NCBI GenBank assembly: GCA_049643885.1
Contig: JBARQV010000027.1
Location: forward strand, 3,294 to 67,293
Length of the DNA: 64,000 nucleotides
Source of the DNA: Candidatus Omnitrophota bacterium
GTDB lineage: Bacteria > Omnitrophota > Gorgyraeia > Tantalellales > Tantalellaceae
Direction: 5' to 3'
Part shown: one piece after another, positions 29,114-52,100 of the stretch
How the letters are laid out: each line of letters opens with the position of its first letter
How positions within the stretch are numbered: position 1 is the first letter of the stretch
Translations under genes and position numbers: made by a program
The notes under the pieces: model-generated
The model's database searches: none
Seen by the model: only the letters and a program-made list of their open reading frames with translations
Told to the model about the DNA's origin: nothing

Positions 29114-29167
29114 TTGCCCGATTTATCGGGCAAAGTTTATTGATGTAGTTGCCCAATTCATTGGGCA
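29114..29167. promoter_or_regulatory. two 20-bp perfect palindromes TTGCCCGATTTATCGGGCAA and TTGCCCAATTCATTGGGCAA, 34 bp centre-to-centre
   Basis: Read directly. They lie between the nfnB stop and the response-regulator start. They could be terminator hairpins, an operator pair, or both. Confidence 0.4.
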
Positions 29168-29187
29168 AAAACCGAAGGCGGGTAAAA

Positions 29188-29868: not shown

Positions 29869-30107
29869 ATATCCAGATATCCCCAAAAAAAGCACAATTA
29901 AAAGTTTAATTAGCTAGATAGCGCCAAAAATCCCTCCATTTTTAATTAACCCAAATTTAATCAAATTCAAATAATTACTTAACGTGCATGCTATATACTT
30001 GAAGTGTATGGCGAATACATATATATATGTGTATTCGCTTGAAATACGTTGAAATGTTAGGTAAACTAAAAGAGTGTAGCAAAAGACGCTCTTTCTTCTT
30101 TGAAAAT

Positions 30108-30235
30108 TCGCGAAAGGCAAACCCCGTGAAAGCGGGGGGCGCAAAGCTTGAGAGCCTAAAGCCGTTGGCTATGGCAGTCAGTTGCCGAATGGGAAAAATT
30201 AAAAACCCATAGCTTCTCAGGCTATGGGTTTTTTG
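30108..30235 (+). promoter_or_regulatory. c-di-GMP-I (GEMM) riboswitch-like leader, copy 1, with terminator expression platform
   Basis: AAAGGCAAACC; P2 hairpin CCCCGUG-AAA-GCGGGG carrying a GAAA tetraloop; GGCGCAAAGC; tetraloop receptor CCUAAAG...CUAUGG. The arrangement is close to the Vibrio Vc2 class-I aptamer. A terminator follows at 30205-30235 (ACCCAUAGC-UUCUCAG-GCUAUGGGU-U6). Confidence 0.8.
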
Positions 30236-30248
30236 CTATATACGATGC

Positions 30249-33200
30249 ATGGTGAGGTTGGCAGAAATGAACAATAACAATTCTTTAAGAGTATGTATTA
30301 TTATCCTGGCAATGTTATTTGCCTGGACGAATTGTGTCTACTCTCTGCCGAAAGTCGACGAGGTCGTATCCGGCGAAGCAGAAGTAAAGATGGTCGATCC
30401 CAACACCATGCAGATCAATGCCACCGACAACACCATCATAAATTACCAATCATTTAACATCATGGAACACGAATCGGTTATCATCTCTCTCCCGAATTCA
30501 AGCAGCGAGATCCTTAACCGGGTGATAGGGCCTGACCGCAGCGACCTCTTTGGTAACCTGTCATGTAACGGGATATTTATCCTCGTGAACCAGAACGGGA
30601 TCTATGTGGGGCCGAACGCTAATATAGAAGCGGCAAGCGCGATCCTTTCGACAAGGGACATAACCGACTCCGATTTTATCGATGGGCAATATCTATTCCA
30701 GAAACTCTCCGATGAAGAGATGGACATGCTCCTCCTCAACGAGGGCACCATAAGGATCCAGGACGGCGGCTTCGGCGTCCTGATAGCCGGGGCGATAGAG
30801 AACAATGGTAAGATCATAGCCCCGTGCGGTAAGATAGTCCTGGCAGGGGGAGACGCCATAAAGCTTAACATGTCGGCGAATGGCCTGATCTCCGTCGCCA
30901 TCCTGGAGAAAACGGCTTCCAAAATATATGACCATGAAGGGAACCCCATACTTGACCAGATCAAGAATACCGGCGAACTTCGGGCGAACGGGGGCGCCGT
31001 TATTCTCAAGGCGGAAAGCGTAACCGATGTCTTTAGAAGCGCTATAAACCTGGAAGGGGTGGTCGAGGCCAACAGGGTAGAGGACAAAGACGGTGTTATA
31101 AGCATAGTGGCCGATAATGATGTAACGATAAACGCGGAAATGGCAGCAACTAGCATTGATATTAAGACTGAATATGATATTGACCTGGACGCTAATATCG
31201 TTGCTTCCGAAGGCGACATACTTCTTTTTGCCGATTATGACGGAGACGGGATCGGCAGCTTCAGGCAACACGGCGGCCTGATCGAGGCGACAGGTGAAGG
31301 GGATATTTATATCGAAGGCTCCGGGGAAATGGTCCTTGGGGCCGTCAAGACAGAGCTGGGTGCGATCAAGATAGGCACCCAAAGGGAGCCTTTTTCCATA
31401 ACGGGCGAACCTCATTATATCCATTCAAAGGGAGATTTTGAGATCACCGCGATGGATGAGGGCGAGGAGGTGACCACCCTCCATACCAGCCGGGGAGATG
31501 TCCTGAAATACAACACCACCGGCAAGGTGATCCTTGAGGCGGCGGACGGCAGGATCGAACAGCTGATCCAGGAGCCGTTGCCGGCGGGATATCTGGAACT
31601 GAAGGCCAGGACATTTGACGTTAATTCAGAAGCAGATGTTACAGTTATCAATGATATTGATAGTAATATTTATATTGAAAAGCTGATAGAGATCTCGGAA
31701 GATGTAGTTTCCCTGGAAGGCGAAACGACCGGCAGGGTCACGTATCTTATCTCGAATGATATTGTCCTCCAGACCCCTCATGACGTGGACACTGCCCCCG
31801 GGGTTATTATCCCGGGAGATAATGTCAAGATAACCGCCAGAAGAATAGGGTCAAACGACTCACCTGTGGGTATTTCTGCCAACCTCACCTATATCCATAG
31901 GATCCAGGGAGACATCGTCATCTCCGAGATCTGGGGTCTCGGGACAACAATATGCATCAGGGGTCCTGACCCGGATACGAACCCGGATAGCTGGGGAGCG
32001 ATTAATTTAAATAAAAATACAGACCTTATATTGGAGGCCTCTCAAGGAGGTCTTTTTATATCTGAAAATTGTGCTCTTCAAGCACAAAATCTCACATTAA
32101 TCGCAAGCCAGGGCATAGAAAATTACGGCTCTTTATTGGTCGAGAACGGAACCCTCACCCTTACGGCGGAAGGCGCCGTAATAAGCCTTGGCTCCTTAAG
32201 GGCCGAGACCCTTATAGAGGAGGGCGCCTCTTTTGTGGTCGGAGGAGAATATATAGTAGGCTACGCAACCGCCCGGAACGCAGATAACGCTGTAACACTT
32301 TATACGGGAAACTATTCAGGAGAAACCAGCGATACAGGCGACATTGCTGTCAAAAATAACAACATTATAACCCTGGTGGGAGACACTATATTCCGCGCTG
32401 ACAGCGACCAGAATGGGGTCGGGGGTTTTAAGCCTCAAGTTGGCTCCAGCATTGTAGGAGGGGGATATAATCTTTGGATATATGGTTCCGAGAGCTCAAC
32501 CCTTCGGCAGATAACAGGCGTCGGGACTCTTTCGCTATATAGATCCTACGCAAGCTCAAATCCCTATTATATTGATTATAGTGCCTGGAGCGTGGGGAAT
32601 TTGATCATTGGCGCAGGTATTTCGTTAGATATCCAAGGTGTGGGTTTAACATTAAGTGGAAATTTTACAAATAACGGCACATTTGTGTCAAATAACGCCG
32701 TCATATTCAGCGGCGCCGGTACGTCAAATATTACAGGAAATATCACATTTAACAATCTTACCTGTACTACCGCCGGCAAGATCCTGAAATTCAAAGAAGG
32801 CCAGACTTTTACCATAAACGGGACCCTTGCCCTGACAGGAACATCCGGCAATGAGATCGTTCTCGACAGCCAGAACGGTTCAACGCAATTTACGTTTAAA
32901 GTGGCCAGCGCCCAGAGCGTCAGCTACATAGTTGTCGCAAACTCTAATGTCGACGATACTTCAGGCGGCAATATAACCGCCTCTAACTCTTATAATGACG
33001 GCAATAACGATACCGGACCCACGGGACGTTACTGGGCAGGGCTTCCCGCGGCAACATATTCTGTTTACGGGGCAGTATATTCCGACCAGGGTTCTACGCT
33101 GATGGGCGCGGGTGTGAATATAGTTCTGGCGAGAAACGGAGTGGTCACGGCCAACACAAATACGCTTGCGAGCGGCCAGTACGCTTTTCACGGACGAGCT

Positions 33201-36200
33201 TTCTCAGCCAATGATGTGGTTTTGATCTACATAAACAATAGTACCACAAACGGTAATGTGGTAGTAATTGTAGATGCTGCCAGGATAACCGGGGCGGATA
33301 TATACGGGAACACTGCTATCGCCAGGCACCAGACGGCGGGACCCGTCACGAACGCGACATTTTCTACAGCTAAAGGCTCCATGACGGATACGGATATAAT
33401 CTATTCGGTGTCCGGTTCCAACTTGGAACTGAATGAGGGAGTGAGCTTTGTGGTATGGACAGGCGATACATATACTCCGGGTGGAAATCTTTATTGCAAC
33501 GATGTTGTCGTGCAGTCAAGCGCTATATTCAATGCCGCCGCGGGCTCTACAATAAGCGCCTCAGGCGATTGGGCGAACAGCGGCACGTTCAATCCCAGCA
33601 CATCGACCGTTATCCTTACCGGCGGAAGCGTGCAAACGCTGACTTCAGGGGGGTCTTCGTTCAACAACCTTACGATTGCGGGCGTAGGCACGTACAGGCT
33701 TCAGGATGCCCTGAATGTTACCGGCACCCTTGCTATATCAGGGTATTCCTACAAAAAAGCGATCGTTATAGATAATACAAAAGTAAACGCTGATCTGACG
33801 AATTTTCCGGTCCTTTTCAGCGTTACCGACAGCGATCTGGCGGTGACAGGCAGCGGCGGATATGTAACGAGTTCCAACGGTTGTGACATTATCTTTACCG
33901 ATCACGCCGGGGTCCAGCTGGACCATGAGGTCGAGTCATACAACCCGGCGACCGGACAGATCATCGCATGGGTGAAGGTGCCGAGCCTGTCAAATTCCAC
34001 AGACACGACGATCTACGTCCATTACGGTAACAGCGATATCATAACCTCGCAGGAGAACCCGACAGGCGTATGGAGCAACGGTTTTGCCGCGGTCTGGCAT
34101 CTTGGTTCATCCATAAATGATTCGACAAGCAACGGCATCACAGGCACAAATAACGGGACAACGGAAGAGACGACTATCGTAAAGGTGGGCACAAGCACTT
34201 ATTTTAACGGTTCAGAATCCGATTATATCAATTATGGCGAGCCGAGCGCGCTCGATATAAGTGGGAACAACCCGATCACCATCGAAACCTGGGTATACTT
34301 TAACTCGGTCGCTGCAAACTATCAGGATTTCTTCTCAAAAGGTGACACGCAATACCACTTACAGAAAAATAACGCAGATCCCGGGGTAATACAATTTGTT
34401 ATTTATGACGGAGACTGGCAGCTTGTCCAGGCGGACAGCAATGTTTCAACAGGAACCTGGTATCATGTTGTAGGGACATATAATGGAGTAAGCGGCGGGG
34501 CACTGGAGCTTTATATAAATGGCTCCAAGCAGACAGGCAGCGACACAGCTGCATCGATCAACAATACGGCTTATAGTGTCTATATGGGCGAGAACAGCCA
34601 GTCAACCGGCCGCTACCTGGACGGATATATGGACGAAGCCCGCATATGCAACGCCTACAGGACTGGTGGCTGGATACAGACCGAGCACAATAACCAATCC
34701 TCTCCTTCGACGTTTTATCCTAATTACACTTCGGAAGCACGGACCACCGGTGACAGTGCGACGCTTTGTCTGAATGGCAAGAACCTCTCTACCGCAACAC
34801 TCAATAATACCGGGACCCTGAGGCTCCTGGGGGCAGAAACGGTAAGCATAACCACGATGGATACAGATTCAGGACTGGTTGATTATTATGGAGACGGTTC
34901 ATATACGGGACTGGCGGCGGGGGACAGCTACTTCGACCTTACGTTTTCGGGGACCGGGGTCTATACCCTTGATGCCGATCTGGACATAAACGGTGATCTT
35001 TCCTTTACGCCTACATTCCAGTACAGGAAGGAAATAACCATTTACGCCTCACAGGTGGATGCGGACGTGACCGATTTTCCGGTCCTTTTCAGCGTTACCG
35101 ATGCTGACCTGATCGATAACCTGATGCACGACGCGAATTACACTATCAAGTTCACCAACGCGACCGGGACCGAGCTGCCATATGAAGTAGAGTATTACAA
35201 TAACGCAACAGGCCAGCTGATAGCATGGGTCAAGGCCGATTCATTATCCTCGAGCACCAATACAACGCTGTGGCTGTATTACGGCTCGCTGGAAGCCGAC
35301 TCCACGGAAGCAGCGACCAGCGTGTGGAGCAACAATTATTCGGCCGTGTGGCACATGAGTGAAGCGTCGGGGACTATCTATAATTCAACATCTTATCCCA
35401 ACAACGGGACCGCCGCCGGGGGCATTACTTACGGCGCAGCCGGAAAAATAGACGGATCTGTCAGCCTTGACGGCGTTGATGATCGGATAAACTGCGGGTG
35501 GGATCCAAGCCTGTCGCCCTCGAATGCGATCACCGTTTCCCTTTGGACGCAGAATGCCGTATCTCCGGCGCAATATGACGGCATCCTCGGCAAGACAAGC
35601 AGCTTTAAATGGGACGACGGGTACGGCATGTTTTACAACAGCTCAACCGAGGTCCGTTTTTATGTATCAAATTACAGCGCGAATGTCGCTTACGCGTCCT
35701 TGACGCCCACGAACATGAATTATATTGTCGGCACGTTTGACGGTTCGAATGTGCGGATATATGTAAATGGCGTAGAGGGCACGGCAGATCCGTATGCAGG
35801 CACCATATCATCAACGGCAGCCATGTTAGTGCTGGGCCAGTTATCGGGAACTGCATACAATATCAACGGCAAGCTGGATGAAGTCCGCGTTGCCGGCACA
35901 TGGCGTCCGTCCGGCTGGATCTCAACAGAATTCAAAAACCAGAATTCTCCCGGCACGTTTTTCGGCACCGGAAGCGAGATCAGCGGCGGCGCTACCATAA
36001 ACGCAGGAAGCTATGACATCAACAGTGCAGGCGATTTTGATCTTACAAGCGGCATATTTGATGCCGGTACGGGCACGGTTATATTTGACGGGGTATCCAC
36101 CCAGACCCTGACCACGGCCTCATATGATTTTTACGGTTTGACCGTCTCCAACGCCTCCTCAAACGGTGTTCAGCTTGCAGATGCCCTTACCGTTACGAAC

Positions 36201-39200
36201 GCTCTCACCATATCGACGAATGGCGTTTTTGATCTCCAGGATAATAATATGACGGCAACAGGAGCTGTCTTTTCGAACGACGGCACGCTCAGGCTCGTCG
36301 GATCGCAGGCGATAACGGGCCTTGTTATGGACACCGATTCGGGCACGGTGGAATATACCGGCGACGGTGATGCGACTCAGGAGACCTTTACGATCAAGGA
36401 TTTCGGCGCTATCGACTATTATCACCTTTTGATAAATGACACTAATGCCACGACCGCCAACCGGGACATTATTTCCGTAGGCGTGGGAACAAACCTGAAC
36501 GTCGACGGGGATCTTACAGTTTCCGGGGGAACGTTGAATATTAACGGGCAAAGCGTCAACATCGCCGGGAATTTCAGCGTGAGCGCGAGCCCGGACGCGA
36601 GATATCAGCAGGGCGGCGGCAGCGATAATACCTTCGATGGCAGCGGTAATGCCACCATTGATACCGGGGGAACAGATGACGACCACGATCTTACCCGCTT
36701 CATCGTGGACAAGTCCGGCGGAGCCGTTCTTACCGTGATAAACAATGGCGTGGATATAAATGAGAGCCTTACGATCACCAACGGTGTTCTTAGCTTGAAT
36801 GGCCAGAATATCACAACGACCACCACATTTTCAAATTCCGGAACCCTGCGTCTTCAGGGGAATGAGAGCGTGTCTTGGACCACGAACGACACTGATTCAG
36901 GCAAATGGGAGTATGTTGGTGATGGCGATTCCCTGGCGGACACATACACGATCAAGGATTTCGGGACCCCGGATTATTATAATCTGACCATCAATTCTAC
37001 TGACGGCGTGACCGACACATTCCAGCTCGGCGCCGCATTGGATGTTGACAGAAACCTCACCATTACTTCCGGCCGGCTGGATGCCAATAGCCAGAACATC
37101 AATCTTGCCGGCAACTGGATCAAAACCGGCGGGACCTTTGACAGCGGAACTAATACCGTTACATTTGACGGGGGGAGCGCGCAGACCATGAATTCCGGCG
37201 GCACGGATACAGGAAGCGATTTTAACAACATCACCGTATCCGGCTCAACGGTCCAGTTAATAGATAACGCGGTCGATATCGACGGCACTTTGACCATAAA
37301 TTCAGGCAAGGTCTTTGACCTTAACGGCCAGGACTTCACCCTCGCGACACTTGATAACAGCGGTACCTTGCAGCTCGAGGGGACGGAGACGGTCGCGATA
37401 ACCACGATGGATACCGACTCAGGAGAGGTTCTCTATACCGGATCGGGTTCTTATACAGGCCTTGCGGCGGGGGATAACTATTACGATCTTACATTTGCCG
37501 GGATCGGGAGTTATGCTCTGGATGCCGCTTTAGACGTAAACGGCTCTCTTGCAATATCAGGTTATTCCTATAAAAAAGCGATCGTATTGGAAAGCGACCA
37601 GGTAAGCGGCACTGCCGACCTGACGGATTTTCCCGTGCTATTTAGCGTTACGGATACCGATTTGAGGACAACGGGCAACGGTGGGCAGGTAACGGATCCC
37701 AACGGTTACGATATTATCTTTGTGGATTCCAACGGGGACCAGCTCGACCACGAGGTCGAAGCGTACAACGCCGCAACCGGGCAATTGATCGCGTGGGTAA
37801 AGGTTTCCGCGCTGGATTATAATGATGACACGACAATCTATATTTATTACGGCAACAGCAACATTACAAGTTCCCGGGAGAATGCTTCCGGCGTGTGGAG
37901 TAATTCTTACGCGGCTGTATATCACCTTGGCGAAGCCGGCACCGGAACGGCAGGCGATTACCAGGATTCCACTTCAAACAGTAATGATAGCGTGAGCACG
38001 AGCAACCAGCCTTCACAGACAACCGGCAAAATCGACGACTACGGCCAGTATTTTGACGGGTCTGAGGCGATACGCATTGCCGATGCTTCTTCGCTTGAGC
38101 CGACATCCATGACCATTTCATGCTGGTTCAAAAGAGACGGAGCCCAAAAGGACTGGACCAAGATCGTGCATAAGGGGCAGGGGAATAGCCCGTTCGGTTC
38201 TTATATACTGCAATTGAGCGCGGATGAGACGGAAGCAGAGTTCCAGGTAGCCAAGACGACCCCGGACTATGCAAAGGCAAGCAGCGGGACCGGGGCTGTC
38301 GCGGATGATACCTGGTACTATCTGGTAGGGACCTACGACGGGACCACCTACGACGGGATTTTATATATTAACTCCGCAAATATCGATAGTTTTAACGATA
38401 CCGCCCCTCTTTATTATGAAACCACCGGGCTTGGGATCGGAGGGCCCGGTTATAACGCTTATAATGATGCGGCAATCGGAGTTGTAGACGAAGTCAGGAT
38501 ATCGAGTGCCGTCCGCACCCAGGGCTGGATCACCACTGAATACAACAACCAGAATACTCCCTCAGCGCTTTATCCGACTTATACGTCAGGGAGCGGCCAG
38601 ACTGCCGGCAGTGCCGGAACGCTGGACGCAGCCGGATATAACATGAACATCGGCGGCAGCTGGACGAACTCAGGGACGTTCACGCACAACAATAATACGG
38701 TCATATTTGACGCGAACGATGCCGATAATACCATTACTTCCGGCGGCTCTTCCTTTAATAATGTCACGATCTCGAGCGGCACCTATGCCATGCAGGATGC
38801 CATGGTCATAGACGGCAATCTTACCACATGTCCCTGGGCGGATGAGTATTCTTACAGGAAGACGATAACAATAGAATCGGATTACGTCGACGCGGATGTG
38901 AGCGACTTCCCGATGCTCTTCAGTGTCACCGACACGGATTTGATAGACAACGTGATGAGCGGTTCGAACTACACGATCAAGTTCACCAATTCAACCGGGA
39001 CAGAGCTTCCTTATGAAGTTGAATACTACAATAACGGGACAGGCCAGCTTATCGCCTGGGTGAAGGCGGATTCCCTGTCAGGCAGCACCGATACGACCCT
39101 TTATCTTCACTACGGCTCGAGCGGCACTGCTTCTACGGAAAACCCGAGTGGAGTATGGAGCAATGGATATGAGGCGGTTTGGCATTTAACGGATGCGGCC

Positions 39201-42200
39201 GACTCGACCGGCGCGGGAAACGATCTCACCAACACCAACGTTACATTTGCCGGGGCCGATCCTAAGATAGGTGATTACGCGTTGTTTGATGGAGACGGTG
39301 ATCAATTAGAAGACGGAGACGGCGAGTCCTATATCAACGGATTGTCGGCAATAACCGTTTCCATGTGGGTCAATTCGGATATCACCGGAACCGACAGGGG
39401 ATTTTTTGATACCGAAGCGCCTGACGGGAATGATGACGTTACAAACCTAAGATATGATGACGCGGGCGCAAGCGGAGGAGCGGATGATTGCCTCAAAGTA
39501 AGCATTAACGCCACTACCGGTGAACAGCAGGCGTTGGAGAGTTCTGCGCTTAGCCAGACAACCAGCTGGCAGTATATCGTCCTTACATGGTCATCCGGGG
39601 TTGATGTTGCGCTATATCTGGACGGTTCGCCGGATACGCCTTCTTACTTGGAGGCTGGCGCTAGCAGCGGCACCTTGCAGAACGCCACTACCGTTTTAGT
39701 GGGTAAAGGCCCTAAAGACGGCGCGGCGCAGAGTTGGGACGGGCTGATCGATGAGGTGCGTGTTTCCAGCATAGCCCGGCCCTCCGGATGGATATCTACG
39801 GAACACAACAACCAGGACAACCCTTCGGCGTTTCACTCGACCGGGAGTGAGGGTTCGTCAGCTCCTGTTCTTGACTTGAGCGGGCAGAACCTCACCGTGA
39901 CCGGCACATTAGATAATTGCGGAACTATTAAGCTCGAGGGCGGCGAGACAGTGAACCTTACCATGGACACCGATTCAGGGCTGGTGGAATATTACGGAGC
40001 CGGCTCTTACGCAGGCCTTGTCGCCGGCGATGAGTATTATGATGTTAAGTTTTCCGGCAGCGGCAATTTTGACCTGGACGCGAACCTGCAAATAAACGGC
40101 GATCTTAATATCACGGGCTCCGTGACAGGGGACGCCGCGGGATATTCTTATTATAAAACAGTGACTATAAATTATAACTATGTAGACGATGATCTGACCA
40201 ACTTCCCGATGCTTTTTATTGTCGCCGACAGCGATCTGGCGACCGTAGTGAATGGCGGAAACGTGAACAGCTCGAGCGGCTACGATATAATCTTCACCGA
40301 CACAAGCGGAAATCAGCTTGACCACGAGATCGAGAAATATGATCCGGAGACAGGCGAAGTAGTGGCATGGGTCAGGATCCCCTCACTGTCCGGTTCAGTT
40401 AACACGGCCATTAATGTACATTATGGTAACGGTTCAGTGACCGCTTCCCAGGAAAATGTCAGCGGTGTTTGGGGAACTATCTATGACGGAGTTTGGCACC
40501 TGAATGACGACTTGCAGGATTCCTCGTCCACCGCCAATAACGGCACAAACAACGGATCAGCTGACGCGACCGGCAAGATAGCCGATGGGCAGTCTTTTAA
40601 CGACGCGGAGAGCGACTATATCGCGGTAGGGTCCGACCTTAGCCAGTGGCTGGGCAGCGACGGGTATGTATCCTTATGGATCAATACGACACAGACAGGC
40701 AATGATACGATGTGGCAGGCGCCCGGTGTGACCGGCGTGGAGCAATCAGGAGGCGCTAATGACATTTTCTACGGGTGGATAGATGCTTCCGGCCAGATAG
40801 GCGTCCAGGCAGGGAACACCGCCGGAGCGAAGAGCGCTGCAGACATAAATGACGGCGCGTGGCATTACATAGCCATGACGCGGAACGCGACTACAGGCGA
40901 AGTAAATATGTATGTAGATGACAACACGGTTGTTACGGCCACTTCGGAGACGGGGGCAAAAACAAATGCATTTTACAGTTTCGGGAGGATAGAGGACACA
41001 GGGGGCACCCCGGTCTATTTTAACGGCACGCTTGATGAGATCCGCGTTACGGATTCCATAAGACCGGCCGAGTGGATATCGACCGAATACAATAACCAGT
41101 TTTCCCCGGGAACGTTTTTCGGGACCGGAGGAGAGACAAGGAACGCCCCGGTCCTCAATGCCGGTAGCTATAACATCAATATAGCCGGCAATTACTCGCA
41201 GGACGAAGGGACTTTTGTCGCCCCGTCAAGCGTTCTCGGTCTTACAGGCAATTTCGACCTCACGGGAGGCACGTTCAACCACAACAGCGGCACTATCGCT
41301 TTCAACGCGACCGATACGGACAACACGCTCAACTTGAACGGCACCGCTTTCAATAACGTGAGGTTTGTTAACACTGCCACATATGCGCTGAACAGCGACC
41401 TCGATGTCGACGGCACGCTTACTTTCGCGCAGGAATCAGGATACGGAAAAGAAAAGACCATAACGATAGACCATGATCTGGTCGCGGAGGACCTGACCGA
41501 TTTTCCGATCCTTTTCAGCGTAACAGACGGCGACCTGGCCACGGTCGCCAACGGCGGTGACGTCGCTAACGCCAACGGCTACGACATCATATTCACCGAC
41601 GCGAACGGCACGCGGCTTGACCATGAGATAGAGAGCTACGATCCCGTTTCCGGCCAGATAGTCGCCTGGATAAAGGTTCCCGCGGTCTCTGCTGGCGCGG
41701 ACACGGTCATATACATGAAATACGGCAATGATGACATAACTACCTCCCAGGAGAACATCTCAGGTGTTTGGGACTCAAGTTTTGTAGGTGTGTGGCACAT
41801 GGATGAGACTTCCGGACTTGTATATGATTCTACATCCTACAATAATGACGGCACTGTATTTGCTTTTGCGCTCGGGGAAGTGAACAGGAGCGAGACCGGA
41901 AAGATAGACGGGGCCAATGATCTTGATCTTGCAAGCTATCCGAACGATCCCGCATATATTTTAATGACTGATTCCGGCAGCTTGGACATCACGGGAGAAC
42001 TCACGATATCGGCCTGGATAAATGCCGATGACCTTACGAACAGCAGGACGATCGTAGCGAAAGGTGCTTCGCTGACAAGCGTGAACTACGCTTTAAGCAC
42101 GAACGGCACGGAAGCTCAGTTCGGTTTCTATAACGGCGGAAATCGAACGTATGTTACCTCGAGTGCGGGGATTTCGACAGGCACCTGGTATTATGTTGCT

Positions 42201-44420
42201 GCCACGTACGATGACGCAGCGAACAGTGTGAAAGTTTATGTCAATGATACCAACAAGCTCGATACTTCTTCGACGTATTCACTGATAGCCGATAACGGCA
42301 ATTTGAATGTAAGCACTTATACATATGCTCCGGCTGGTGTATACGGTTTTAAGGGTTCGATAGATGAAGTTCGCATATCTAATACGGACAGGAGCGCCGG
42401 GTGGCTGGAGACAGAATTCAATAACCAGACAAGCCCCGCGATATTCCACAGCCAGGGAGGCGAAACGGTACCATTGACGACAATAGTTCTCAACAATAAC
42501 GATATCATTGCCGCGAGAGATTTTCACGGCAAAGGCGTTACGCTTTCCGGGGCAGGCGGCGTGGTATTGGATGGATCGAGCACTCAGAGTTTTGACCCGG
42601 GTTCGGTGAGTCTTTATAATCTGACGATCTCCAACAGCTCAACCAACGGCGTTCAGGTCAGCGACAGCCTGACGGTTACAAATGCATTGACAATATCTTC
42701 GAACGGCGTTCTCGACCTTCAGGACCAGGACCTTACTGCTACCGGCGCTTCTTTCTCCAATGACGGGACCCTTAGGCTTGTCGGAGGGCAGACGATAACC
42801 GGTCTTACAATGGATACCAATTCCGGGACAGTGGAATATTACGGGAATGGCTCCTACACCGGTCTTGCGGCGGGGAACAACTATTATAATCTTTATTTTT
42901 CCGGCGACGGTTCTTATGCGCTTACCGGAGACCTGGACGTGAATAACGATCTGACGTTCGCAAGCTACACATGGTACGATGCCAACTGGTTGAGCAGGAT
43001 AAAGATCACCGTTTCAAGCTCTCAGGTCGGTGAAAACCTGGCCGACTTCCCGGTTTACGTGGACCTTTCGGACCTGGGCTCGTCTTTCTTCAGCACCGTA
43101 AAAACAGATGGGTCTGACATACTTGTAACGGAAATTGATGGCACGACGGTTCTCAAGAGAGAAGTCGTTGACATAGACACGACCGGGGAGACAGGCGAGC
43201 TCTGGTTCAAAGCATCAAGCCTGAGCTCGTCAACAGACACGTCTTTCTATATCTATTACGGGAACTCAAACGCTTCCCTGGGCAATGATACGGATGTCTG
43301 GAGTAACAGCTATCTCAGCGCGTGGCATCTTGAAGACGCTAACTCCGACTCGACGCCGAACAACCATGATCTTACTGACAACAGTACTTCAAGTGTGGCA
43401 GGCAAGATCGGCGGCGGGCAGGACTTCACGGCCGGCGCGTATTTGGAAGATTCGAACGCTGAAATTTATATCAACGGCCTGAACGCGTTCACTTTGAGTT
43501 TGTGGGCCAATGCCGACGCGATAGGAAACGACCACGGCCTTGTAGTTTCAAAGACTCCGGATAATGCGGATGATGACGGGATCAACCTCAGGTATGACAG
43601 CGCGGGAAGCGACGGAAGCGGTACTAATCTTATCAAGGGGTCAGCAGGAACTTTCGGATGGCCCAGCAGTAATCCATTCAGGTACGAAAGTTCATCTGAC
43701 ACGCAGTCTGCCGACTGGCAATATCTTACTCTTGCATGGTCCAGTGGAAGTCAGATGGCGCTTTATGTGGATGGCGCGGCTGACACTCCAGATTATAACA
43801 GCACAGCCAGGACTACGACCATTACCGGTGCGACTACATTTATCATAGGAAAGGGCACCCAGGATACGACAGGCGGATGGGAAGGGCTTATTGACGAAGT
43901 GTGTTTATCCAACGTCGCCCGCTCCGCGGGATGGATATCCACCGAATACAATAACCAGAATTCCCCGTCTTCGTTCTACGCGACCGGCGGGAGTTCGAAT
44001 ATAAACATAAACACCCAGGGTTACAATATCACTGTTGGCGGAAGTTTCGAGAACCCGGAAAATGTCGGCTCTTTGAGCGGCTCGGGGACGGTGATATTTG
44101 ACGACGCGACTAAAGCATCGAACATCCTTGGCGACACGATCTTCTATAATTTTAGCTGCGCTACTGCCGGGAAACAACTCTTCTTTGAAGCAAGCTCGAC
44201 TACGACTATACAAGGCACGCTGACCCTTATCGGCGGGTCGGGAAACCCGATCATTTTAAGAAGCACCTCGCCGAACACGGCATGGAACATCGATCCGCAG
44301 GGGGCAAGAAGCGTTTCTTACGTTGACGTCCAGGATTCCACGAACCTTGACGTTACAGACATCATCGCCACAAGCTCCGCCGATTCCGGCCGCAACACCG
44401 GCTGGGCCATCACCCCGTAA
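30249..44420 (+). CDS. giant TpsA-family exoprotein (4723 aa): N-terminal TPS domain followed by seven [DUF2341 + LamG/concanavalin-like] modules and beta-helix-like spacers
   Basis: TPS-domain N-terminus (LPKVDEVVSGEAEV...NATDNTIINYQSFNI...LVNQNGIYVGPNANI). Recurring Y-S-Y-K-K-x-I-x-I...L-T-(N/D)-F-P-(V/M)-L-F-S-V...Y-(Y/H)-G-N module heads lie at nt ~33741, 35020, 37561, 38846, 40141, 41441 and 42970. Each is followed by a LamG-like domain ending ...L-D-E-V-R-(I/V)-S....G-W-I-x-T-E-(Y/H)-N-N-Q-x-S-P. Confidence 0.85.
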   Translation: MVRLAEMNNNNSLRVCIIILAMLFAWTNCVYSLPKVDEVVSGEAEVKMVDPNTMQINATDNTIINYQSFNIMEHESVIISLPNSSSEILNRVIGPDRSDLFGNLSCNGIFILVNQNGIYVGPNANIEAASAILSTRDITDSDFIDGQYLFQKLSDEEMDMLLLNEGTIRIQDGGFGVLIAGAIENNGKIIAPCGKIVLAGGDAIKLNMSANGLISVAILEKTASKIYDHEGNPILDQIKNTGELRANGGAVILKAESVTDVFRSAINLEGVVEANRVEDKDGVISIVADNDVTINAEMAATSIDIKTEYDIDLDANIVASEGDILLFADYDGDGIGSFRQHGGLIEATGEGDIYIEGSGEMVLGAVKTELGAIKIGTQREPFSITGEPHYIHSKGDFEITAMDEGEEVTTLHTSRGDVLKYNTTGKVILEAADGRIEQLIQEPLPAGYLELKARTFDVNSEADVTVINDIDSNIYIEKLIEISEDVVSLEGETTGRVTYLISNDIVLQTPHDVDTAPGVIIPGDNVKITARRIGSNDSPVGISANLTYIHRIQGDIVISEIWGLGTTICIRGPDPDTNPDSWGAINLNKNTDLILEASQGGLFISENCALQAQNLTLIASQGIENYGSLLVENGTLTLTAEGAVISLGSLRAETLIEEGASFVVGGEYIVGYATARNADNAVTLYTGNYSGETSDTGDIAVKNNNIITLVGDTIFRADSDQNGVGGFKPQVGSSIVGGGYNLWIYGSESSTLRQITGVGTLSLYRSYASSNPYYIDYSAWSVGNLIIGAGISLDIQGVGLTLSGNFTNNGTFVSNNAVIFSGAGTSNITGNITFNNLTCTTAGKILKFKEGQTFTINGTLALTGTSGNEIVLDSQNGSTQFTFKVASAQSVSYIVVANSNVDDTSGGNITASNSYNDGNNDTGPTGRYWAGLPAATYSVYGAVYSDQGSTLMGAGVNIVLARNGVVTANTNTLASGQYAFHGRAFSANDVVLIYINNSTTNGNVVVIVDAARITGADIYGNTAIARHQTAGPVTNATFSTAKGSMTDTDIIYSVSGSNLELNEGVSFVVWTGDTYTPGGNLYCNDVVVQSSAIFNAAAGSTISASGDWANSGTFNPSTSTVILTGGSVQTLTSGGSSFNNLTIAGVGTYRLQDALNVTGTLAISGYSYKKAIVIDNTKVNADLTNFPVLFSVTDSDLAVTGSGGYVTSSNGCDIIFTDHAGVQLDHEVESYNPATGQIIAWVKVPSLSNSTDTTIYVHYGNSDIITSQENPTGVWSNGFAAVWHLGSSINDSTSNGITGTNNGTTEETTIVKVGTSTYFNGSESDYINYGEPSALDISGNNPITIETWVYFNSVAANYQDFFSKGDTQYHLQKNNADPGVIQFVIYDGDWQLVQADSNVSTGTWYHVVGTYNGVSGGALELYINGSKQTGSDTAASINNTAYSVYMGENSQSTGRYLDGYMDEARICNAYRTGGWIQTEHNNQSSPSTFYPNYTSEARTTGDSATLCLNGKNLSTATLNNTGTLRLLGAETVSITTMDTDSGLVDYYGDGSYTGLAAGDSYFDLTFSGTGVYTLDADLDINGDLSFTPTFQYRKEITIYASQVDADVTDFPVLFSVTDADLIDNLMHDANYTIKFTNATGTELPYEVEYYNNATGQLIAWVKADSLSSSTNTTLWLYYGSLEADSTEAATSVWSNNYSAVWHMSEASGTIYNSTSYPNNGTAAGGITYGAAGKIDGSVSLDGVDDRINCGWDPSLSPSNAITVSLWTQNAVSPAQYDGILGKTSSFKWDDGYGMFYNSSTEVRFYVSNYSANVAYASLTPTNMNYIVGTFDGSNVRIYVNGVEGTADPYAGTISSTAAMLVLGQLSGTAYNINGKLDEVRVAGTWRPSGWISTEFKNQNSPGTFFGTGSEISGGATINAGSYDINSAGDFDLTSGIFDAGTGTVIFDGVSTQTLTTASYDFYGLTVSNASSNGVQLADALTVTNALTISTNGVFDLQDNNMTATGAVFSNDGTLRLVGSQAITGLVMDTDSGTVEYTGDGDATQETFTIKDFGAIDYYHLLINDTNATTANRDIISVGVGTNLNVDGDLTVSGGTLNINGQSVNIAGNFSVSASPDARYQQGGGSDNTFDGSGNATIDTGGTDDDHDLTRFIVDKSGGAVLTVINNGVDINESLTITNGVLSLNGQNITTTTTFSNSGTLRLQGNESVSWTTNDTDSGKWEYVGDGDSLADTYTIKDFGTPDYYNLTINSTDGVTDTFQLGAALDVDRNLTITSGRLDANSQNINLAGNWIKTGGTFDSGTNTVTFDGGSAQTMNSGGTDTGSDFNNITVSGSTVQLIDNAVDIDGTLTINSGKVFDLNGQDFTLATLDNSGTLQLEGTETVAITTMDTDSGEVLYTGSGSYTGLAAGDNYYDLTFAGIGSYALDAALDVNGSLAISGYSYKKAIVLESDQVSGTADLTDFPVLFSVTDTDLRTTGNGGQVTDPNGYDIIFVDSNGDQLDHEVEAYNAATGQLIAWVKVSALDYNDDTTIYIYYGNSNITSSRENASGVWSNSYAAVYHLGEAGTGTAGDYQDSTSNSNDSVSTSNQPSQTTGKIDDYGQYFDGSEAIRIADASSLEPTSMTISCWFKRDGAQKDWTKIVHKGQGNSPFGSYILQLSADETEAEFQVAKTTPDYAKASSGTGAVADDTWYYLVGTYDGTTYDGILYINSANIDSFNDTAPLYYETTGLGIGGPGYNAYNDAAIGVVDEVRISSAVRTQGWITTEYNNQNTPSALYPTYTSGSGQTAGSAGTLDAAGYNMNIGGSWTNSGTFTHNNNTVIFDANDADNTITSGGSSFNNVTISSGTYAMQDAMVIDGNLTTCPWADEYSYRKTITIESDYVDADVSDFPMLFSVTDTDLIDNVMSGSNYTIKFTNSTGTELPYEVEYYNNGTGQLIAWVKADSLSGSTDTTLYLHYGSSGTASTENPSGVWSNGYEAVWHLTDAADSTGAGNDLTNTNVTFAGADPKIGDYALFDGDGDQLEDGDGESYINGLSAITVSMWVNSDITGTDRGFFDTEAPDGNDDVTNLRYDDAGASGGADDCLKVSINATTGEQQALESSALSQTTSWQYIVLTWSSGVDVALYLDGSPDTPSYLEAGASSGTLQNATTVLVGKGPKDGAAQSWDGLIDEVRVSSIARPSGWISTEHNNQDNPSAFHSTGSEGSSAPVLDLSGQNLTVTGTLDNCGTIKLEGGETVNLTMDTDSGLVEYYGAGSYAGLVAGDEYYDVKFSGSGNFDLDANLQINGDLNITGSVTGDAAGYSYYKTVTINYNYVDDDLTNFPMLFIVADSDLATVVNGGNVNSSSGYDIIFTDTSGNQLDHEIEKYDPETGEVVAWVRIPSLSGSVNTAINVHYGNGSVTASQENVSGVWGTIYDGVWHLNDDLQDSSSTANNGTNNGSADATGKIADGQSFNDAESDYIAVGSDLSQWLGSDGYVSLWINTTQTGNDTMWQAPGVTGVEQSGGANDIFYGWIDASGQIGVQAGNTAGAKSAADINDGAWHYIAMTRNATTGEVNMYVDDNTVVTATSETGAKTNAFYSFGRIEDTGGTPVYFNGTLDEIRVTDSIRPAEWISTEYNNQFSPGTFFGTGGETRNAPVLNAGSYNINIAGNYSQDEGTFVAPSSVLGLTGNFDLTGGTFNHNSGTIAFNATDTDNTLNLNGTAFNNVRFVNTATYALNSDLDVDGTLTFAQESGYGKEKTITIDHDLVAEDLTDFPILFSVTDGDLATVANGGDVANANGYDIIFTDANGTRLDHEIESYDPVSGQIVAWIKVPAVSAGADTVIYMKYGNDDITTSQENISGVWDSSFVGVWHMDETSGLVYDSTSYNNDGTVFAFALGEVNRSETGKIDGANDLDLASYPNDPAYILMTDSGSLDITGELTISAWINADDLTNSRTIVAKGASLTSVNYALSTNGTEAQFGFYNGGNRTYVTSSAGISTGTWYYVAATYDDAANSVKVYVNDTNKLDTSSTYSLIADNGNLNVSTYTYAPAGVYGFKGSIDEVRISNTDRSAGWLETEFNNQTSPAIFHSQGGETVPLTTIVLNNNDIIAARDFHGKGVTLSGAGGVVLDGSSTQSFDPGSVSLYNLTISNSSTNGVQVSDSLTVTNALTISSNGVLDLQDQDLTATGASFSNDGTLRLVGGQTITGLTMDTNSGTVEYYGNGSYTGLAAGNNYYNLYFSGDGSYALTGDLDVNNDLTFASYTWYDANWLSRIKITVSSSQVGENLADFPVYVDLSDLGSSFFSTVKTDGSDILVTEIDGTTVLKREVVDIDTTGETGELWFKASSLSSSTDTSFYIYYGNSNASLGNDTDVWSNSYLSAWHLEDANSDSTPNNHDLTDNSTSSVAGKIGGGQDFTAGAYLEDSNAEIYINGLNAFTLSLWANADAIGNDHGLVVSKTPDNADDDGINLRYDSAGSDGSGTNLIKGSAGTFGWPSSNPFRYESSSDTQSADWQYLTLAWSSGSQMALYVDGAADTPDYNSTARTTTITGATTFIIGKGTQDTTGGWEGLIDEVCLSNVARSAGWISTEYNNQNSPSSFYATGGSSNININTQGYNITVGGSFENPENVGSLSGSGTVIFDDATKASNILGDTIFYNFSCATAGKQLFFEASSTTTIQGTLTLIGGSGNPIILRSTSPNTAWNIDPQGARSVSYVDVQDSTNLDVTDIIATSSADSGRNTGWAITP

Positions 44421-48688: not shown

Positions 48689-48967
48689 CGGAACCTCCTT
48701 TATTTGGCATGCCAAGCGAGACAGGGTTAAAGAAAATAAAGAGCAATTTTATATTGTTAATATATCACTTCTAAGCGGTTTTTGCAATGAGATTTACAAG
48801 AATGCCTTCGGGGCGAGAGACCCAGAAAGGTGTTCTGTGGGGGGGGCGAAGAAGAAAATGTTAAAAAAACAAAAGGCAGTAGAGGTTTTCTTATAATATT
48901 ACTTACCATGTGCTATACTTTAACTGGAGCTACATATACGCGTTCTTTGGGATATTTGTATAAGTAA

Positions 48968-49095
48968 CGATAAAGGCAAACCTTGCGAAAGCAGGGGACG
49001 CAAAGCTCAAGAGCCTAAAGCCGGGAGGCTATGGTAGTCAGTTGCCGAAACCGAGAATCCGTGACCCATAGTCTGTCCAGGCTATGGGTTTTTTA
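48968..49095 (+). promoter_or_regulatory. c-di-GMP-I (GEMM) riboswitch-like leader, copy 2, with terminator expression platform
   Basis: AAAGGCAAACC; P2 CCUUGCG-AAA-GCAGGG, which differs from copy 1 by compensatory changes (C-G to U-A, and U.G to C-G); GGACGCAAAGC; CCUAAAG...CUAUGG. Terminator ACCCAUAG-UCUGUCCAG-GCUAUGGGU-U6 at 49064-49095. Confidence 0.8.
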
Positions 49096-49120
49096 TTTTA
49101 GAGGTAGATAGGTGCCTGAA

Positions 49121-52100
49121 ATGAAAAGCAAAGCCGTAACGACAATCATATTCTCGGTATGTGCAATATTTTTTGCAGGGGTGGCGTGTGTCCATCCTCT
49201 TCCTGAGGTGGACGAAGTCGTTTCCGGCGAAGCCGAAATAAAAATAACCGACTCCCAGACAATGAACATCGATGCGGCAAATCATACGATCATCAATTAC
49301 ACATCGTTTAATATAAATGAAAATGAAAAAGTATACATCAACCTTCCTTCCAGGGACAGCGACATACTCAACAGGGTGACCGGGAAAACCCCAAGTTATA
49401 TTTTAGGCGATCTGTATTGCAACGGTGTCTGCATCCTCGTGAATGCGTCAGGGATCTATGTAGGACAGAACGCGAACATCGACGCGGCGGGTCTTGTTCT
49501 TTCAACTCGGGACATAACCGATTCAGATTTTATTTCCGGGAACTATGTGTTCAAAAAACTTTCCGATGAACAACTTGACATGCTTTTGTTGAACGAGGGA
49601 ACGATAAAGATCCATGACGGCGGTTTTGGTGTCTTGATCGCGGGCGCTGTTGAAAACAGGGGAACAATAATTTGTCCCGCGGGAAAGATCGTCCTGGCGG
49701 GAGGCGACGCGATAAAACTTGATATCGCGGGCAACGGATTAATTTCTGTCGCGATACTTGAAGAGACCGCGTCAAAAATCCTGGATTACGAAGGAAATCC
49801 GATAACGGACCAGATAAAAAATTCCGGGCGCCTGGAAGCGAATGGCGGAACAGTTATTTTAAAAGCGGAAAGTGTCACGGATATTTTTCAGTGCGCGATA
49901 AATCTTGAAGGCTTTGTCATGGCAAACAAAGTGGAAGAGAAAGACGGAAAGATCTGTTTGGTTGCTGATAGCGAAGTAAAACTTAACGCGGAAATGCAAG
50001 CGACACAAATCGAGATATCCGCGGGAAAAATTTCAGGCGCACCTGATCGTGTCCACGCAAAAGGTGATTATCTGAAAGTCGAAGCACCCGAAATAAACAT
50101 TCATTCAGAAGCTATAACAACTCATATTATTGACACCGACAGTGGCATAAATATTAAAGAACTTATTGAAATACCCGAAAGTAATTTAATTAAACTTATA
50201 GGCGAAGATACCGGAGAAGTAACATACATAAAAACACATAACATCACTTTAGAAACTCCCAGGGGCGATGTAAATACCGCGCCTGGCGTGGTCATACCCG
50301 GTAATGAGGTCAAAGTGTCCGCGCGGCGGATAGGCTCGCGCGACAATCCTGTTAATATTGATGCCAACCTCACCTATATTAACAGGATACAAGGCGACAT
50401 CATTGTCTCCGATATGTGGGGACTTGGGTCGACCATCTCTATCAGGGGTCCTGACCCGCACCCGGATAGTTGGGGCGCTGTTGTTTATAACGGCGGTTCT
50501 GACCTCGTTCTTGAAGCGGAAAATGTCGTTCTCTCGGGTAATGAACCTGTCCATTTATATGGAAATATTACCTTCCATAATCTCAGCTGTACCGTTCCGG
50601 GGAAAGAAATATATTTTGAAGCCGGGAAAACCTGCACCATATTGGGCGATCTGAAGATGCAGGGTGCCGATGCTCAGCACATTAAACTGCTCTCGTCCGA
50701 GGAAGGGAGTTACTGGTTTATAGACGCGCGCGGGGGCAGGGACCTTACCTATACCTGGGTCGAAGATTCCTATAATCTTGCCCCCGATGAGGTCATGATG
50801 ACGGAATCCACCAATAGGGGCGGGTGCTTCGGGTGGGATCCAACAGCCACCTGGACGGGGGCTGTGGATAACCTCTGGTCCGAGCCGGGCAACTGGATCG
50901 GTCTTGGCGGAGGGGTTATACCGGGAGCCGGGGATGATGTGGTGTTCGATGTTACCAGCAGCGCTGATTCTACCATAGACCAGGCCTTCACGATCGCTTC
51001 TTTAACGATAGATGCCGCGTATGGGGGGACCATAACACAGAGCGGTAATTTGGCCGTCTCGGGCGATTACGCGCAGTCCGGCGGGACGTTAAGCTGCACG
51101 GATCCGGCGGCACATTCTTTTACGGTCGGCGGGAGCTTCAATCTAACAGGCGGCGCGTTCAACCGCTTCACCGGGACAGGAACAAGCGGCGATCCGTTCT
51201 TAGTTAGGGATATATATGACCTTCAGGCGATAGACCTCCGTTTATACAGCTACTATAGCCTTAATAATAATGTTGATGCCGCCGTTACACAGAGTTGGAA
51301 TTCAGATGGCGCGGGTGGCTATTACGGGTTCAACCCGATAGGGAGCAGTTCCACCTGGTTCAGCGCCGTCTTCGACGGCCGGAACAACACGATATCGAAT
51401 CTTTACATTAACAGGCCTGCCGAGACCCATATCGGCCTGTTTGCCCGCACCCGCGGGGGCGGACAGGGGATACGTAACGTCGGGCTGGTCGGAGGCAGTG
51501 TCACCGGAGGCGACAGGACAGGAAGTCTTGTCGGTTACGTTGAGTATTCCGTAATAGAGAACTGTTATGCTACAACCGATGTGACAGGCACATACCGTAT
51601 GGTTGGAGGACTGGTCGGATCAGCCAGCGGTAATGGCAGGATCACCGGTTCATACGCGGAAGGAACTGTGGCGGGTGCCGGCAGCAATGTCGGGGGGCTG
51701 GTAGGGCAGGCCGGTAATAATTTTACCATCGAGAATTCTTACGCCACGGGTGCTGTAACGAATAGTTCATACAATACCGGTGGTCTGGTAGGTAATGTAA
51801 ATAACTGTACTATTACCGGCTCATATGCCACAGGTGATGTATCGAGCACAGGCAGCGGTGAAGCTACCGGCGGCTTGGTAGGTTATTTTATTTCAGGAAC
51901 CATCACTGATTGCTATGCCACTGGAAATATAATAAGTAATGCTAATCTGAGTGGTGGTCTGGTCGGTTACAGCCAGGGCACGATCAGCGGTTGTTATGCT
52001 ACCGGAGAAGTTACCGGTGCTATGAATGGCGGAGGCCTTGTCGGCGGTGTTTATCCGGGTGGTATTGTTGAGAACTCCTATGCTATGGGCGATATAATAT

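Follow-up and report, generated by a model that had tools for sequence, protein, structure and literature searches.

Seven DUF2341–LamG cassettes in a predicted two-partner-secretion exoprotein encoded behind a c-di-GMP riboswitch in an Omnitrophota bacterium

The window analysed here is a 64,000-nucleotide stretch of contig JBARQV010000027.1 (assembly GCA_049643885.1, positions 3,294 to 67,293, forward strand) from a Candidatus Omnitrophota bacterium, and this report concerns the gene that it carries for TpsA-1, a very large protein with a domain for two-partner secretion (TPS) near its N-terminus and a passenger built from seven cassettes, each composed of a DUF2341 head and a laminin-G-like (LamG) half. 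An earlier note on this DNA, made from the sequence alone, had described TpsA-1 as a TpsA-type exoprotein, a description now upheld by a TPS domain recognised by both PF05860 and TIGR01901 and by a TpsB of the ShlB/POTRA_2 type encoded at 55367-57067. The protein has a mass of 499 kDa and a pI of 4.05, is rich in G, T, S, D and N, and contains 18 scattered cysteines (0.4%); these physical traits (acidic, rich in the residues just named and poor in cysteine) match what is expected of a passenger threaded through an outer-membrane barrel. An exact-sequence look-up of TpsA-1 returned no record. The plan of the gene and protein is as follows (nt, nucleotides; aa, amino acids).

30249..44420 (+): TpsA-1, a single intact open reading frame (ORF) of 4,723 aa counted from the first ATG (ORF list and translation)
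30267..30344 (+): putative Sec signal peptide, MNNNNSLRVCIIILAMLFAWTNCVYS followed by LPKV (hydrophobic N-terminus, read from sequence)
30402..31118 (+): TPS secretion domain, aa 52-290 (PF05860, E 2e-23; TIGR01901, E 6e-15)
31119..33743 (+): stem, aa 291-1165 (875 aa), matching no recognised family and holding the N-terminal "bracket" module
32499-33008 (+): N-terminal "bracket" module, aa 751-920, inside the stem
33744-34697 (+): cassette C1, aa 1166-1483, type I head (G.DIIFTD..LDHEVE)
34698..35018 (+): linker C1-C2, 107 aa, type B (MDTDSG..YTGLAAGD), no Pfam family
35019-35942 (+): cassette C2, aa 1591-1898, type II head (NYTIKFTN..LPYEVEYY)
35943..37562 (+): insert C2-C3, 540 aa, three repeat units of ~180 aa, no Pfam family
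37563-38552 (+): cassette C3, aa 2439-2768, type I head
38553..38846 (+): linker C3-C4, 98 aa, type A (..SGGSSFNNVTI..)
38847-39815 (+): cassette C4, aa 2867-3189, apparent mosaic of a C2-like head and a C7-like LamG half
39816..40142 (+): linker C4-C5, 109 aa, type B (MDTDSG)
40143-41099 (+): cassette C5, aa 3299-3617, type I head
41100..41441 (+): linker C5-C6, 114 aa, type A
41442-42428 (+): cassette C6, aa 3732-4060, positional orthologue of cassette 4 of the relative P0153
42429..42986 (+): linker C6-C7, 186 aa, type B (MDTNSG at aa 4188)
42987-43958 (+): cassette C7, aa 4247-4570, divergent head (W..NWLSRIKITV), positional orthologue of P0153 cassette 5
43959..44417 (+): C-terminal "bracket" module, 153 aa (aa 4571-4723), the second copy of this module

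The true start of TpsA-1 is likely the ATG at 30267, to judge from a GGTGAGG 9 nt upstream; a comparison of leaders shows the start context GGTG..GAAATGA to be common to TpsA-1 and to TpsA-2, the second passenger gene of the locus. The putative signal peptide aligns with the N-termini of TpsA-2 and of P0153. The TPS domain scores 84.1 bits with PF05860 (cut-off 33.5) and 54.9 bits with TIGR01901, the NCBIfam model for the filamentous-haemagglutinin N-terminus (cut-off 29.1). A motif search found neither NPNL nor NPNG in this domain, NQNGI at aa 114 replacing the canonical NPNGI, and both curated thresholds are passed nonetheless. Nothing credible was returned by Pfam at E<=1 for the stem, which the earlier note took to be beta-helix-like, or for the linkers, insert or C-terminus.

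That the passenger holds seven DUF2341+LamG cassettes, as the earlier note had proposed, follows both from domain counts and from the repeats themselves. A scan of the whole protein returned seven stretches each of DUF2341 (PF10102, summed E 6e-64) and Laminin_G_3 (PF13385, E 5e-90), a profile built from the repeats recovered exactly seven full-length copies, and searching tiles of the protein against the whole by BLAST gave a clean ladder of offsets with E-values down to 1e-57. When the cassettes were scanned singly, all seven exceeded the gathering score of DUF2341 (28.1-44.5 bits vs 23.4) and six passed that of Laminin_G_3 (51-84 bits vs 27.6), the LamG half of C5 passing Laminin_G_2 instead (26.1 bits vs 22.9). 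The motifs that had been quoted for the heads, the LamG ends and the spacers are all present in TpsA-1, and the head positions proposed for C1-C6 and for C7 fall within 3 nt and 17 nt, respectively, of the mapped starts. The cassettes are each ~320 aa long and are separated by linkers of 98-186 aa plus the 540-aa insert, with head-to-head spacings of 425, 848, 428, 432, 433 and 515 aa; a period of ~430 aa, as first suggested, therefore describes four intervals (425-433 aa) and not those from C2 to C3 (848 aa) and from C6 to C7 (515 aa).

The seven units are more diverged at the protein level than the ~50-60% identity given for them earlier: whole cassettes share 28-47%, LamG halves share 25-44% (median 30%), and only among the DUF2341 heads (31-76%, median 49%) are values of 50-76% reached. 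The low nucleotide identity reported for the array is confirmed by codon-aligned comparisons (42-52%), and because identity amounts to only ~45-50%, synonymous sites between cassettes would be saturated. The best nucleotide repeats within the array reach 71-80% identity over no more than 300 nt, so that neither an assembly artefact nor a recent duplication can account for it.

Comparison with relatives places the array in time. P0153, a protein of 4,457 aa with five full cassettes, is an orthologue: its identity with TpsA-1 is 60% across the TPS domain plus the stem, and 50% across the last 1,500 aa, which are collinear. P0271 is 67% identical to TpsA-1 and is interrupted by a contig end; its gene order is that of the window (CNNM, CNNM, ..., Fer4_20/Pyr_redox_2, response regulators, TpsA), with two response regulators before TpsA in its metagenome-assembled genome (MAG) and one in the window. 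P0303, at 990 aa, represents a minimal form in which a TPS domain and a short stem lead, via one type-B linker, into a single cassette. Proteins of this TPS-linked set carry 1, 5 or 7 cassettes. In a tree of the cassettes, C6 and C7 pair with cassettes 4 and 5 of P0153, and C1/C3 and C2/C4 pair within TpsA-1. Over the whole cassette, C6 is 53% identical to P0153 cassette 4 and C7 is 55% identical to P0153 cassette 5, vs 28-42% to their own paralogues, and because they are closer to their P0153 counterparts than to these paralogues, C6 and C7 predate the split from P0153. When the two halves of the cassette are compared separately, identities are as follows.

C6 and P0153 cassette 4, orthologous: head 57%, LamG half 52%
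C7 and P0153 cassette 5, orthologous: head 59%, LamG half 53%
C1 and C3, paralogous: head 67%, LamG half 33%
C2 and C4, paralogous: head 76%, LamG half 32%
C4 and C7, paralogous: head 33%, LamG half 46%

LamG halves thus share 52-53% between orthologous positions vs a median of 30% between paralogues, whereas DUF2341 heads share 49-59% in orthologous and paralogous comparisons alike. This contrast fits position-specific ligand binding and lends indirect support to the view that the LamG half would carry a position-specific function. The C-terminal cassettes have been maintained in position since before the P0153 split, and C1-C4, nearer the N-terminus, look like younger, lineage-specific duplicates in which the LamG half has since diverged or been exchanged. 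The earlier characterisation of an old, maintained array accordingly holds for the age of the repeats at the nucleotide level and for C6 and C7, but less well for C1-C4. The composition of C4 is suggestive of shuffling, or of gene conversion, where its two domains meet. Its LamG half also shares an insertion (NLRYD.AG..G) with C7.

Between the cassettes, two kinds of linker alternate irregularly, type B being defined by (M/N)DT(D/N)SG...YTGLAAGD and type A by ..SGGSSFNN[LV]T... The spacer motif (M/N)DT(D/N)SG occurs six times, four times directly before C2, C3, C5 and C7 and twice inside the insert, and so the spacer that had been described as separating the repeats is real but does not precede C1, C4 and C6, which follow type A linkers. 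Each of the three units of the insert bears an (M/N)DTDSG motif (aa 2027, 2213 and 2387), and the units, which use both linker motifs, recur at internal offsets of 175-197 aa with 40-48% identity in the tile BLAST. The whole array is flanked on both sides by copies of a "bracket" module of ~150-170 aa (aa 751-920 vs aa 4545-4720, 41-45% identity), which has the pattern ..FNNLTC.TAGK.L.F..G.T..I.GTL.L.G..GN.I.L.S....W.I......V.YV.V.DS.N.. and matches nothing in Pfam. The module is also found at the C-terminus of P0153, and a third copy in the locus lies in TpsA-2 (aa 481-575, 37% identical to the TpsA-1 C-terminus). Motif and Pfam searches of the TpsA-1 C-terminus found no VENN or related motif and no toxin or pretoxin domain.

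The cassette has been conserved as a unit in evolution; it is very common as a stand-alone secreted protein and serves as the building block of many giant surface proteins. A search started from C1 gave as best matches stand-alone proteins of 350-550 aa, some bearing the source names MshQ or ExbB, that contain both Pfam domains and cover 100% of the cassette at 35-42% identity; C1 is 41-44% identical to stand-alone proteins, which equals its similarity to its own paralogues. A cassette profile searched against 1.84 billion representative proteins matched 487,854 at E<=1e-3, of which 67,178 reached E<=1e-30. Arrays of 3-21 cassettes are common, and the 150 best-scoring proteins are multi-cassette giants, the largest array comprising 21 full cassettes in 7,264 aa. 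Among these 150, a TPS domain was detected only in P0153, by phmmer and a local three-sequence profile of limited sensitivity. Conversely, two of 87 TPS relatives of no more than 1,730 aa combine PF05860, PF10102 and PF13385, namely P0303 and P0339, the latter labelled Omnitrophica at source. Besides TpsA-1, three TPS-linked cassette proteins were found, and the two with a source name are both from Omnitrophota. A scan of genome contigs with the N-terminal 1,165 aa of TpsA-1 returned no relative. Judged by these searches, cassette arrays are ordinary, and a TPS export head on such an array is unusual. In public short-read MAGs, orthologous TpsA genes nearly all end at contig ends (for example in locus L084, GCA_046759285.1, and in most TPS homologues), and cassette arrays are therefore under-counted in current databases.

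The fold of the cassette was examined with an AlphaFold 2 (AF2) model of C1 built on an alignment of 107 sequences. The structure prediction that had been proposed as a check gave a confident model, with a predicted local distance difference test score (pLDDT) of 95.2 and a predicted template modelling score (pTM) of 0.92, the high pTM implying that the DUF2341 and LamG halves would form one rigid two-domain body. In the model, cassette residues 1 to ~100 form a six-stranded beta-sandwich packed on the LamG jelly-roll; the Pfam DUF2341 footprint covers cassette residues ~41-110 and leaves out the first two strands (Y-S-Y-K-K..ITI...L.NFPVL). In C1, for example, cassette residues 1-110 correspond to 33744-34073. 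Modelled separately, the DUF2341 head reached a pLDDT of 97. Foldseek matched the LamG half to domain 4 of AbnA, which binds arabinan, and to the receptor-binding domains of botulinum neurotoxins (E ~1e-9 to 1e-10), with template modelling (TM) scores on the target of up to 0.76 and 11-21% identity across the listed hits. All of the top structural matches are non-catalytic binding modules, and their ligands are of several kinds. A sequence search of the Protein Data Bank (PDB) gave only marginal pentraxin matches (E 0.05).

Both TpsA genes are preceded by riboswitches of the cyclic di-GMP (c-di-GMP) type, which the earlier note did not report. The leader elements are listed below; the gathering score of the Rfam model concerned, RF01051, is 35.

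30106..30189 (+): c-di-GMP-I aptamer (RF01051) in the TpsA-1 leader (cmscan, 75.2 bits, E 3e-15, model positions 1-87 of 87)
30201..30233 (+), with a U-run to 30238: terminator hairpin with a 13-bp stem in the TpsA-1 leader (terminator scan)
48965..49049 (+): second c-di-GMP-I aptamer, in the TpsA-2 leader (79.8 bits, E 4.5e-14, model positions 1-87 of 87)
49063-49090 plus U-run (+): terminator in the TpsA-2 leader, homologous to the TpsA-1 hairpin

Rfam matched nothing in the window besides these two aptamers, and each is followed by a strong intrinsic terminator just before the tpsA start codon. The TpsA-1 terminator is present in the minimum-free-energy fold of its leader (z = -3.6) and, by constrained folding, lies wholly outside the aptamer. 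The sole recurrent alternative pairing, between the aptamer segment GGCUAUGG and the CCAUAG arm of the terminator, reaches -13 kcal/mol, far short of the -36 kcal/mol of the aptamer fold, and some related leaders lack it. Leader, signal peptide and TPS-coding region have been duplicated as one module of ~1.05 kb that heads two different passengers (30113-31150 vs 48972-50004, 69% nt identity), the leaders alone sharing 77-83%. A scan of metagenomes with a 22-base pattern taken from the aptamer subtype of the window found ten contigs, in five of which (four distinct sequences) a TPS-domain gene begins right after the terminator; one of these contigs has a response regulator upstream and one a TpsB downstream, and no cassette was found in the sequence available for them.

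Two further features of such leaders deserve mention. A near-perfect inverted repeat, GCGAATACA TATATATA TGTATTCGC, spans 30008-30038 between the response-regulator gene and the riboswitch and could be an operator or promoter element. In another locus (L086, ~1800-1870), the aptamer before a TpsA/TpsB pair reads AAGCAAAC vs AGGCAAAC in the window aptamers; the position concerned is one that we take to be G20 of Vc2, at which a G-to-A change presumably shifts GEMM-I riboswitches towards cyclic GMP-AMP (cGAMP).

The genes that surround TpsA-1 include its presumed secretion partner and a second passenger.

29149-29868: response regulator, upstream of TpsA-1
44435-48715 (-): protein of 1,426 aa with C39 peptidase (aa 663-752) and PT-TG pretoxin (aa 1169-1238) domains
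49112..55366 (+): TpsA-2, 2,084 aa, with TPS, GLUG and YDG domains, the second passenger gene of the locus
55367..57067 (-): TpsB, with POTRA_2, ShlB/FhaC and Omp85 domains (PF03865, E 9e-32; PF08479, E 2e-17; Omp85, E 2e-12)

The Pfam scan covered the 19 larger ORFs of the window and recognised a single TpsB-type protein, this TpsB, which is encoded 11 kb downstream of TpsA-1; the other large ORFs scanned gave no ShlB or POTRA match. TpsA-1 and TpsA-2 share 69.8% identity over their TPS domains, which fits the presumption that one TpsB would serve both. TpsA-2 is also on record as a 2,081-aa protein in MAG GCA_049642145.1. The C39/PT-TG protein, which resembles a polymorphic toxin, lies between both TpsA genes and is convergent to TpsA-1 across a 14-nt gap; its N-terminal matches are coiled-coil-like, and its C-terminal ~190 aa match low-complexity models only. 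Elsewhere in the window that holds both riboswitches, a GAF + HD_5 (HD-GYP-type) protein at 3803-5293 (+) is a possible c-di-GMP phosphodiesterase. Housekeeping genes flank the island, with carB following TpsB. The CarB protein has an identical copy in two NCBI MAGs, and its nearest relatives (73-85%) come almost all from Candidatus Omnitrophota MAGs; the TPS homologues are likewise labelled Omnitrophota, most of them marked "partial". A contig scan based on CarB found the TPS island at none of 80 other carB loci.

The Omnitrophota are abundant, mostly uncultured nanobacteria that are thought to live attached to other microbes. They have been described as host-dependent episymbionts rich in giant surface proteins, in some of which PF13385 is repeated up to 36 times (bioRxiv 10.64898/2026.06.07.730766). 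We consider it probable, with moderate confidence, that TpsA-1 is a multivalent adhesin secreted by the two-partner (type Vb) route and gated by c-di-GMP. On this model, the protein would cross the inner membrane via Sec, be threaded unfolded through the single TpsB, and fold outside the cell into a long fibre displaying the seven cassettes as ligand-binding heads. Because the LamG halves differ by position and yet are kept between orthologous positions, such a fibre would be a multivalent and multi-specific adhesin, and because of the host-dependent lifestyle described for the phylum, its target would probably be a host or prey envelope, or else a matrix of polysaccharide. Read-through of transcription into the TpsA-1 gene would be set by the cellular level of c-di-GMP. 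Of the independent clues that TpsA-1 acts at the surface or in attachment, the upstream riboswitch is the best: riboswitches for c-di-GMP usually govern adhesins, pili and flagella, and therefore such a role is supported for both TpsA proteins.

Several observations weigh against this interpretation. The DUF2341 head has no significant match in a Foldseek search of the PDB, the best hit (E 0.18, TM 0.46) being the accessory beta-sandwich of GH38 mannosidases. The residues kept across the 107 cassettes (WHL, DST, DE.R and W..TE.NNQ) are core motifs of LamG_3 rather than a recognised binding site. LamG domains bind proteins and lipids too, and we know of no ligand for any DUF2341+LamG cassette. 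Carbohydrate binding by the cassettes is suggested by a likeness of fold at 11-21% identity, and the label "lectin" that has been used for them is a plausible guess. The fibre geometry of TpsA-1 is an assumption. TpsB adjoins TpsA-2 rather than TpsA-1 and is encoded on the other strand; that TpsA-1 uses it is our own deduction. With regard to regulation, the leaders of P0303 and P0271 (loci L083 and L084) contain no riboswitch, and the pairing of GGCUAUGG with CCAUAG hints at an OFF switch, which would be unusual for an adhesin and is energetically unsupported.

The same export could instead build a structural coat, in which the protein would form a non-specific protective layer (capsule-like fibrils or a sheath) and the cassettes would serve as rigid, protease-resistant beads or spacers. 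Conservation confined to the fold core, the lack of an identified binding site and the commonness of giant tandem-repeat "scaffold" proteins in Omnitrophota all speak for a coat of this kind. A pure spacer, however, should not keep LamG halves in a position-specific manner (52-53% between orthologues, ~30% between paralogues), stand-alone single-cassette proteins and P0303 make little sense as spacers, and control by c-di-GMP indicates a regulated lifestyle function; we accordingly regard a coat as improbable. It is with respect to the jelly-rolls that an enzymatic role has its appeal, since the PF13385 clan includes glucanases, AbnA among the top structural matches is a GH43 arabinanase (though matched at its accessory domain 4), and the title of a 2023 preprint, in which Omnitrophota occurs 60 times, ties giant genes to cell-wall degradation by predatory bacteria. 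The cassettes would then hydrolyse the walls or polysaccharides of host or prey or position an activity upon them, in line with proposals made for giant Omnitrophota proteins. Yet the top structural matches are all non-catalytic binding domains, Pfam and NCBIfam scans of the 4,723 aa detected no family of glycoside hydrolases, lyases or peptidases, and the GH16-type motif ExDxxE is not conserved, the invariant D-E of DE.R belonging to the LamG_3 core, so that we judge an enzyme or enzyme-targeting scaffold to be quite unlikely.

A giant, TPS-secreted protein with a polymorphic-toxin-like gene (C39 + PT-TG) immediately downstream on the opposite strand also recalls CdiA-type contact-dependent toxin delivery, in which the cassettes would form the receptor-binding region and a toxin would occupy the C-terminus. 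The last 153 aa of TpsA-1, however, duplicate the internal module at aa 751-920 and are conserved in P0153, and what comes next, 14 nt away, is the convergent gene and not a small immunity-like ORF. We have rejected delivery of this type on the lack of a VENN/pretoxin motif, of a toxin domain and of a following immunity gene, and give it a very low probability.

The adhesin reading of TpsA-1 can be taken further, into a proposal that we put forward tentatively and think rather doubtful as a whole. The DUF2341+LamG cassette would be a portable "tip-adhesin" unit carried by different export machines, which may include type IV pilus tips (MshQ/PilY-like), the membrane-anchored giants of Patescibacteria and archaea, and the Omnitrophota two-partner-secretion fibre. 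TpsA-1 would then be a host-recognition fibre with seven position-kept specificities and with a duplicated riboswitch and TPS head as a reusable module, and, were this true, the cell would recognise several envelope structures via one fibre. If no binding is found, TpsA-1 will be an ordinary large surface protein of known domains. A secreted fibre whose seven binding cassettes are distinct and kept by position offers a concrete candidate for host recognition and attachment in Omnitrophota. DUF2341+LamG is also among the commonest uncharacterised extracytoplasmic units (~490,000 proteins), and the ligand of one cassette would inform the whole family. The riboswitch link offers a testable regulatory handle and would extend the targets of c-di-GMP riboswitches to two-partner secretion. 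Domains, secretion system and riboswitch each belong to known types, and it is their combination that is rare and undescribed in the literature searched: no work was found there with both "c-di-GMP riboswitch" and "filamentous hemagglutinin", and "LamG" and "two-partner secretion" appear together only in one unrelated work, present as preprint and as journal article.

Among known systems, TpsA-1 resembles FHA/FhaB of Bordetella and HMW1 of Haemophilus, with their partners FhaC and HMW1B, in having an N-terminal (putative) signal peptide and TPS domain, in the presence in the locus of an Omp85-type TpsB with POTRA_2 and ShlB domains, and in being a very large, acidic, cysteine-poor passenger with a presumed attachment role. 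It differs from them in that the passenger, as scanned with Pfam, contains seven globular cassettes instead of FHA-type repeat families, in the replacement of NPNGI by NQNGI, in the separation of TpsB from TpsA-1 and its apparent sharing with a second TpsA, and in the c-di-GMP riboswitch that precedes the gene. With proteins that combine DUF2341 and Laminin_G_3 (MshQ, ExbB and MJ1470-like proteins, and the giants of Patescibacteria, archaea and others), the TpsA-1 cassette shares 35-44% identity at 100% coverage; these proteins, however, begin with ordinary signal peptides or membrane anchors, and two LamG-only arrays have pilin-like N-termini. An adhesin or pilus-tip role has been proposed for DUF2341/LamG-type proteins (PMC4858521, PMC11809585), the DUF2341 proteins in particular as pilus-tip adhesins of archaeal type IV pili (PMC4858521). 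The giant "tandem-repeat scaffold" proteins of Omnitrophota share with TpsA-1 the phylum, multiple LamG_3 copies and a predicted surface location, but comprise at least 10,000 aa, TpsA-1 being smaller at 4.7 kaa (thousand aa), and their description makes no mention of two-partner, hemagglutinin, adhesin, LamG or laminin (bioRxiv 10.64898/2026.06.07.730766).

Finally, the leaders of the window can be set beside c-di-GMP-I (GEMM-I) riboswitches of other bacteria, examples of which are Vc1/gbpA of Vibrio cholerae and the flagellar and pilus leaders of Clostridioides difficile. Like these, they combine a full-length RF01051 aptamer with a terminator as expression platform and a downstream gene for a surface protein; unlike these, they precede TpsA exoproteins, and leader and TPS-coding region have been duplicated together.

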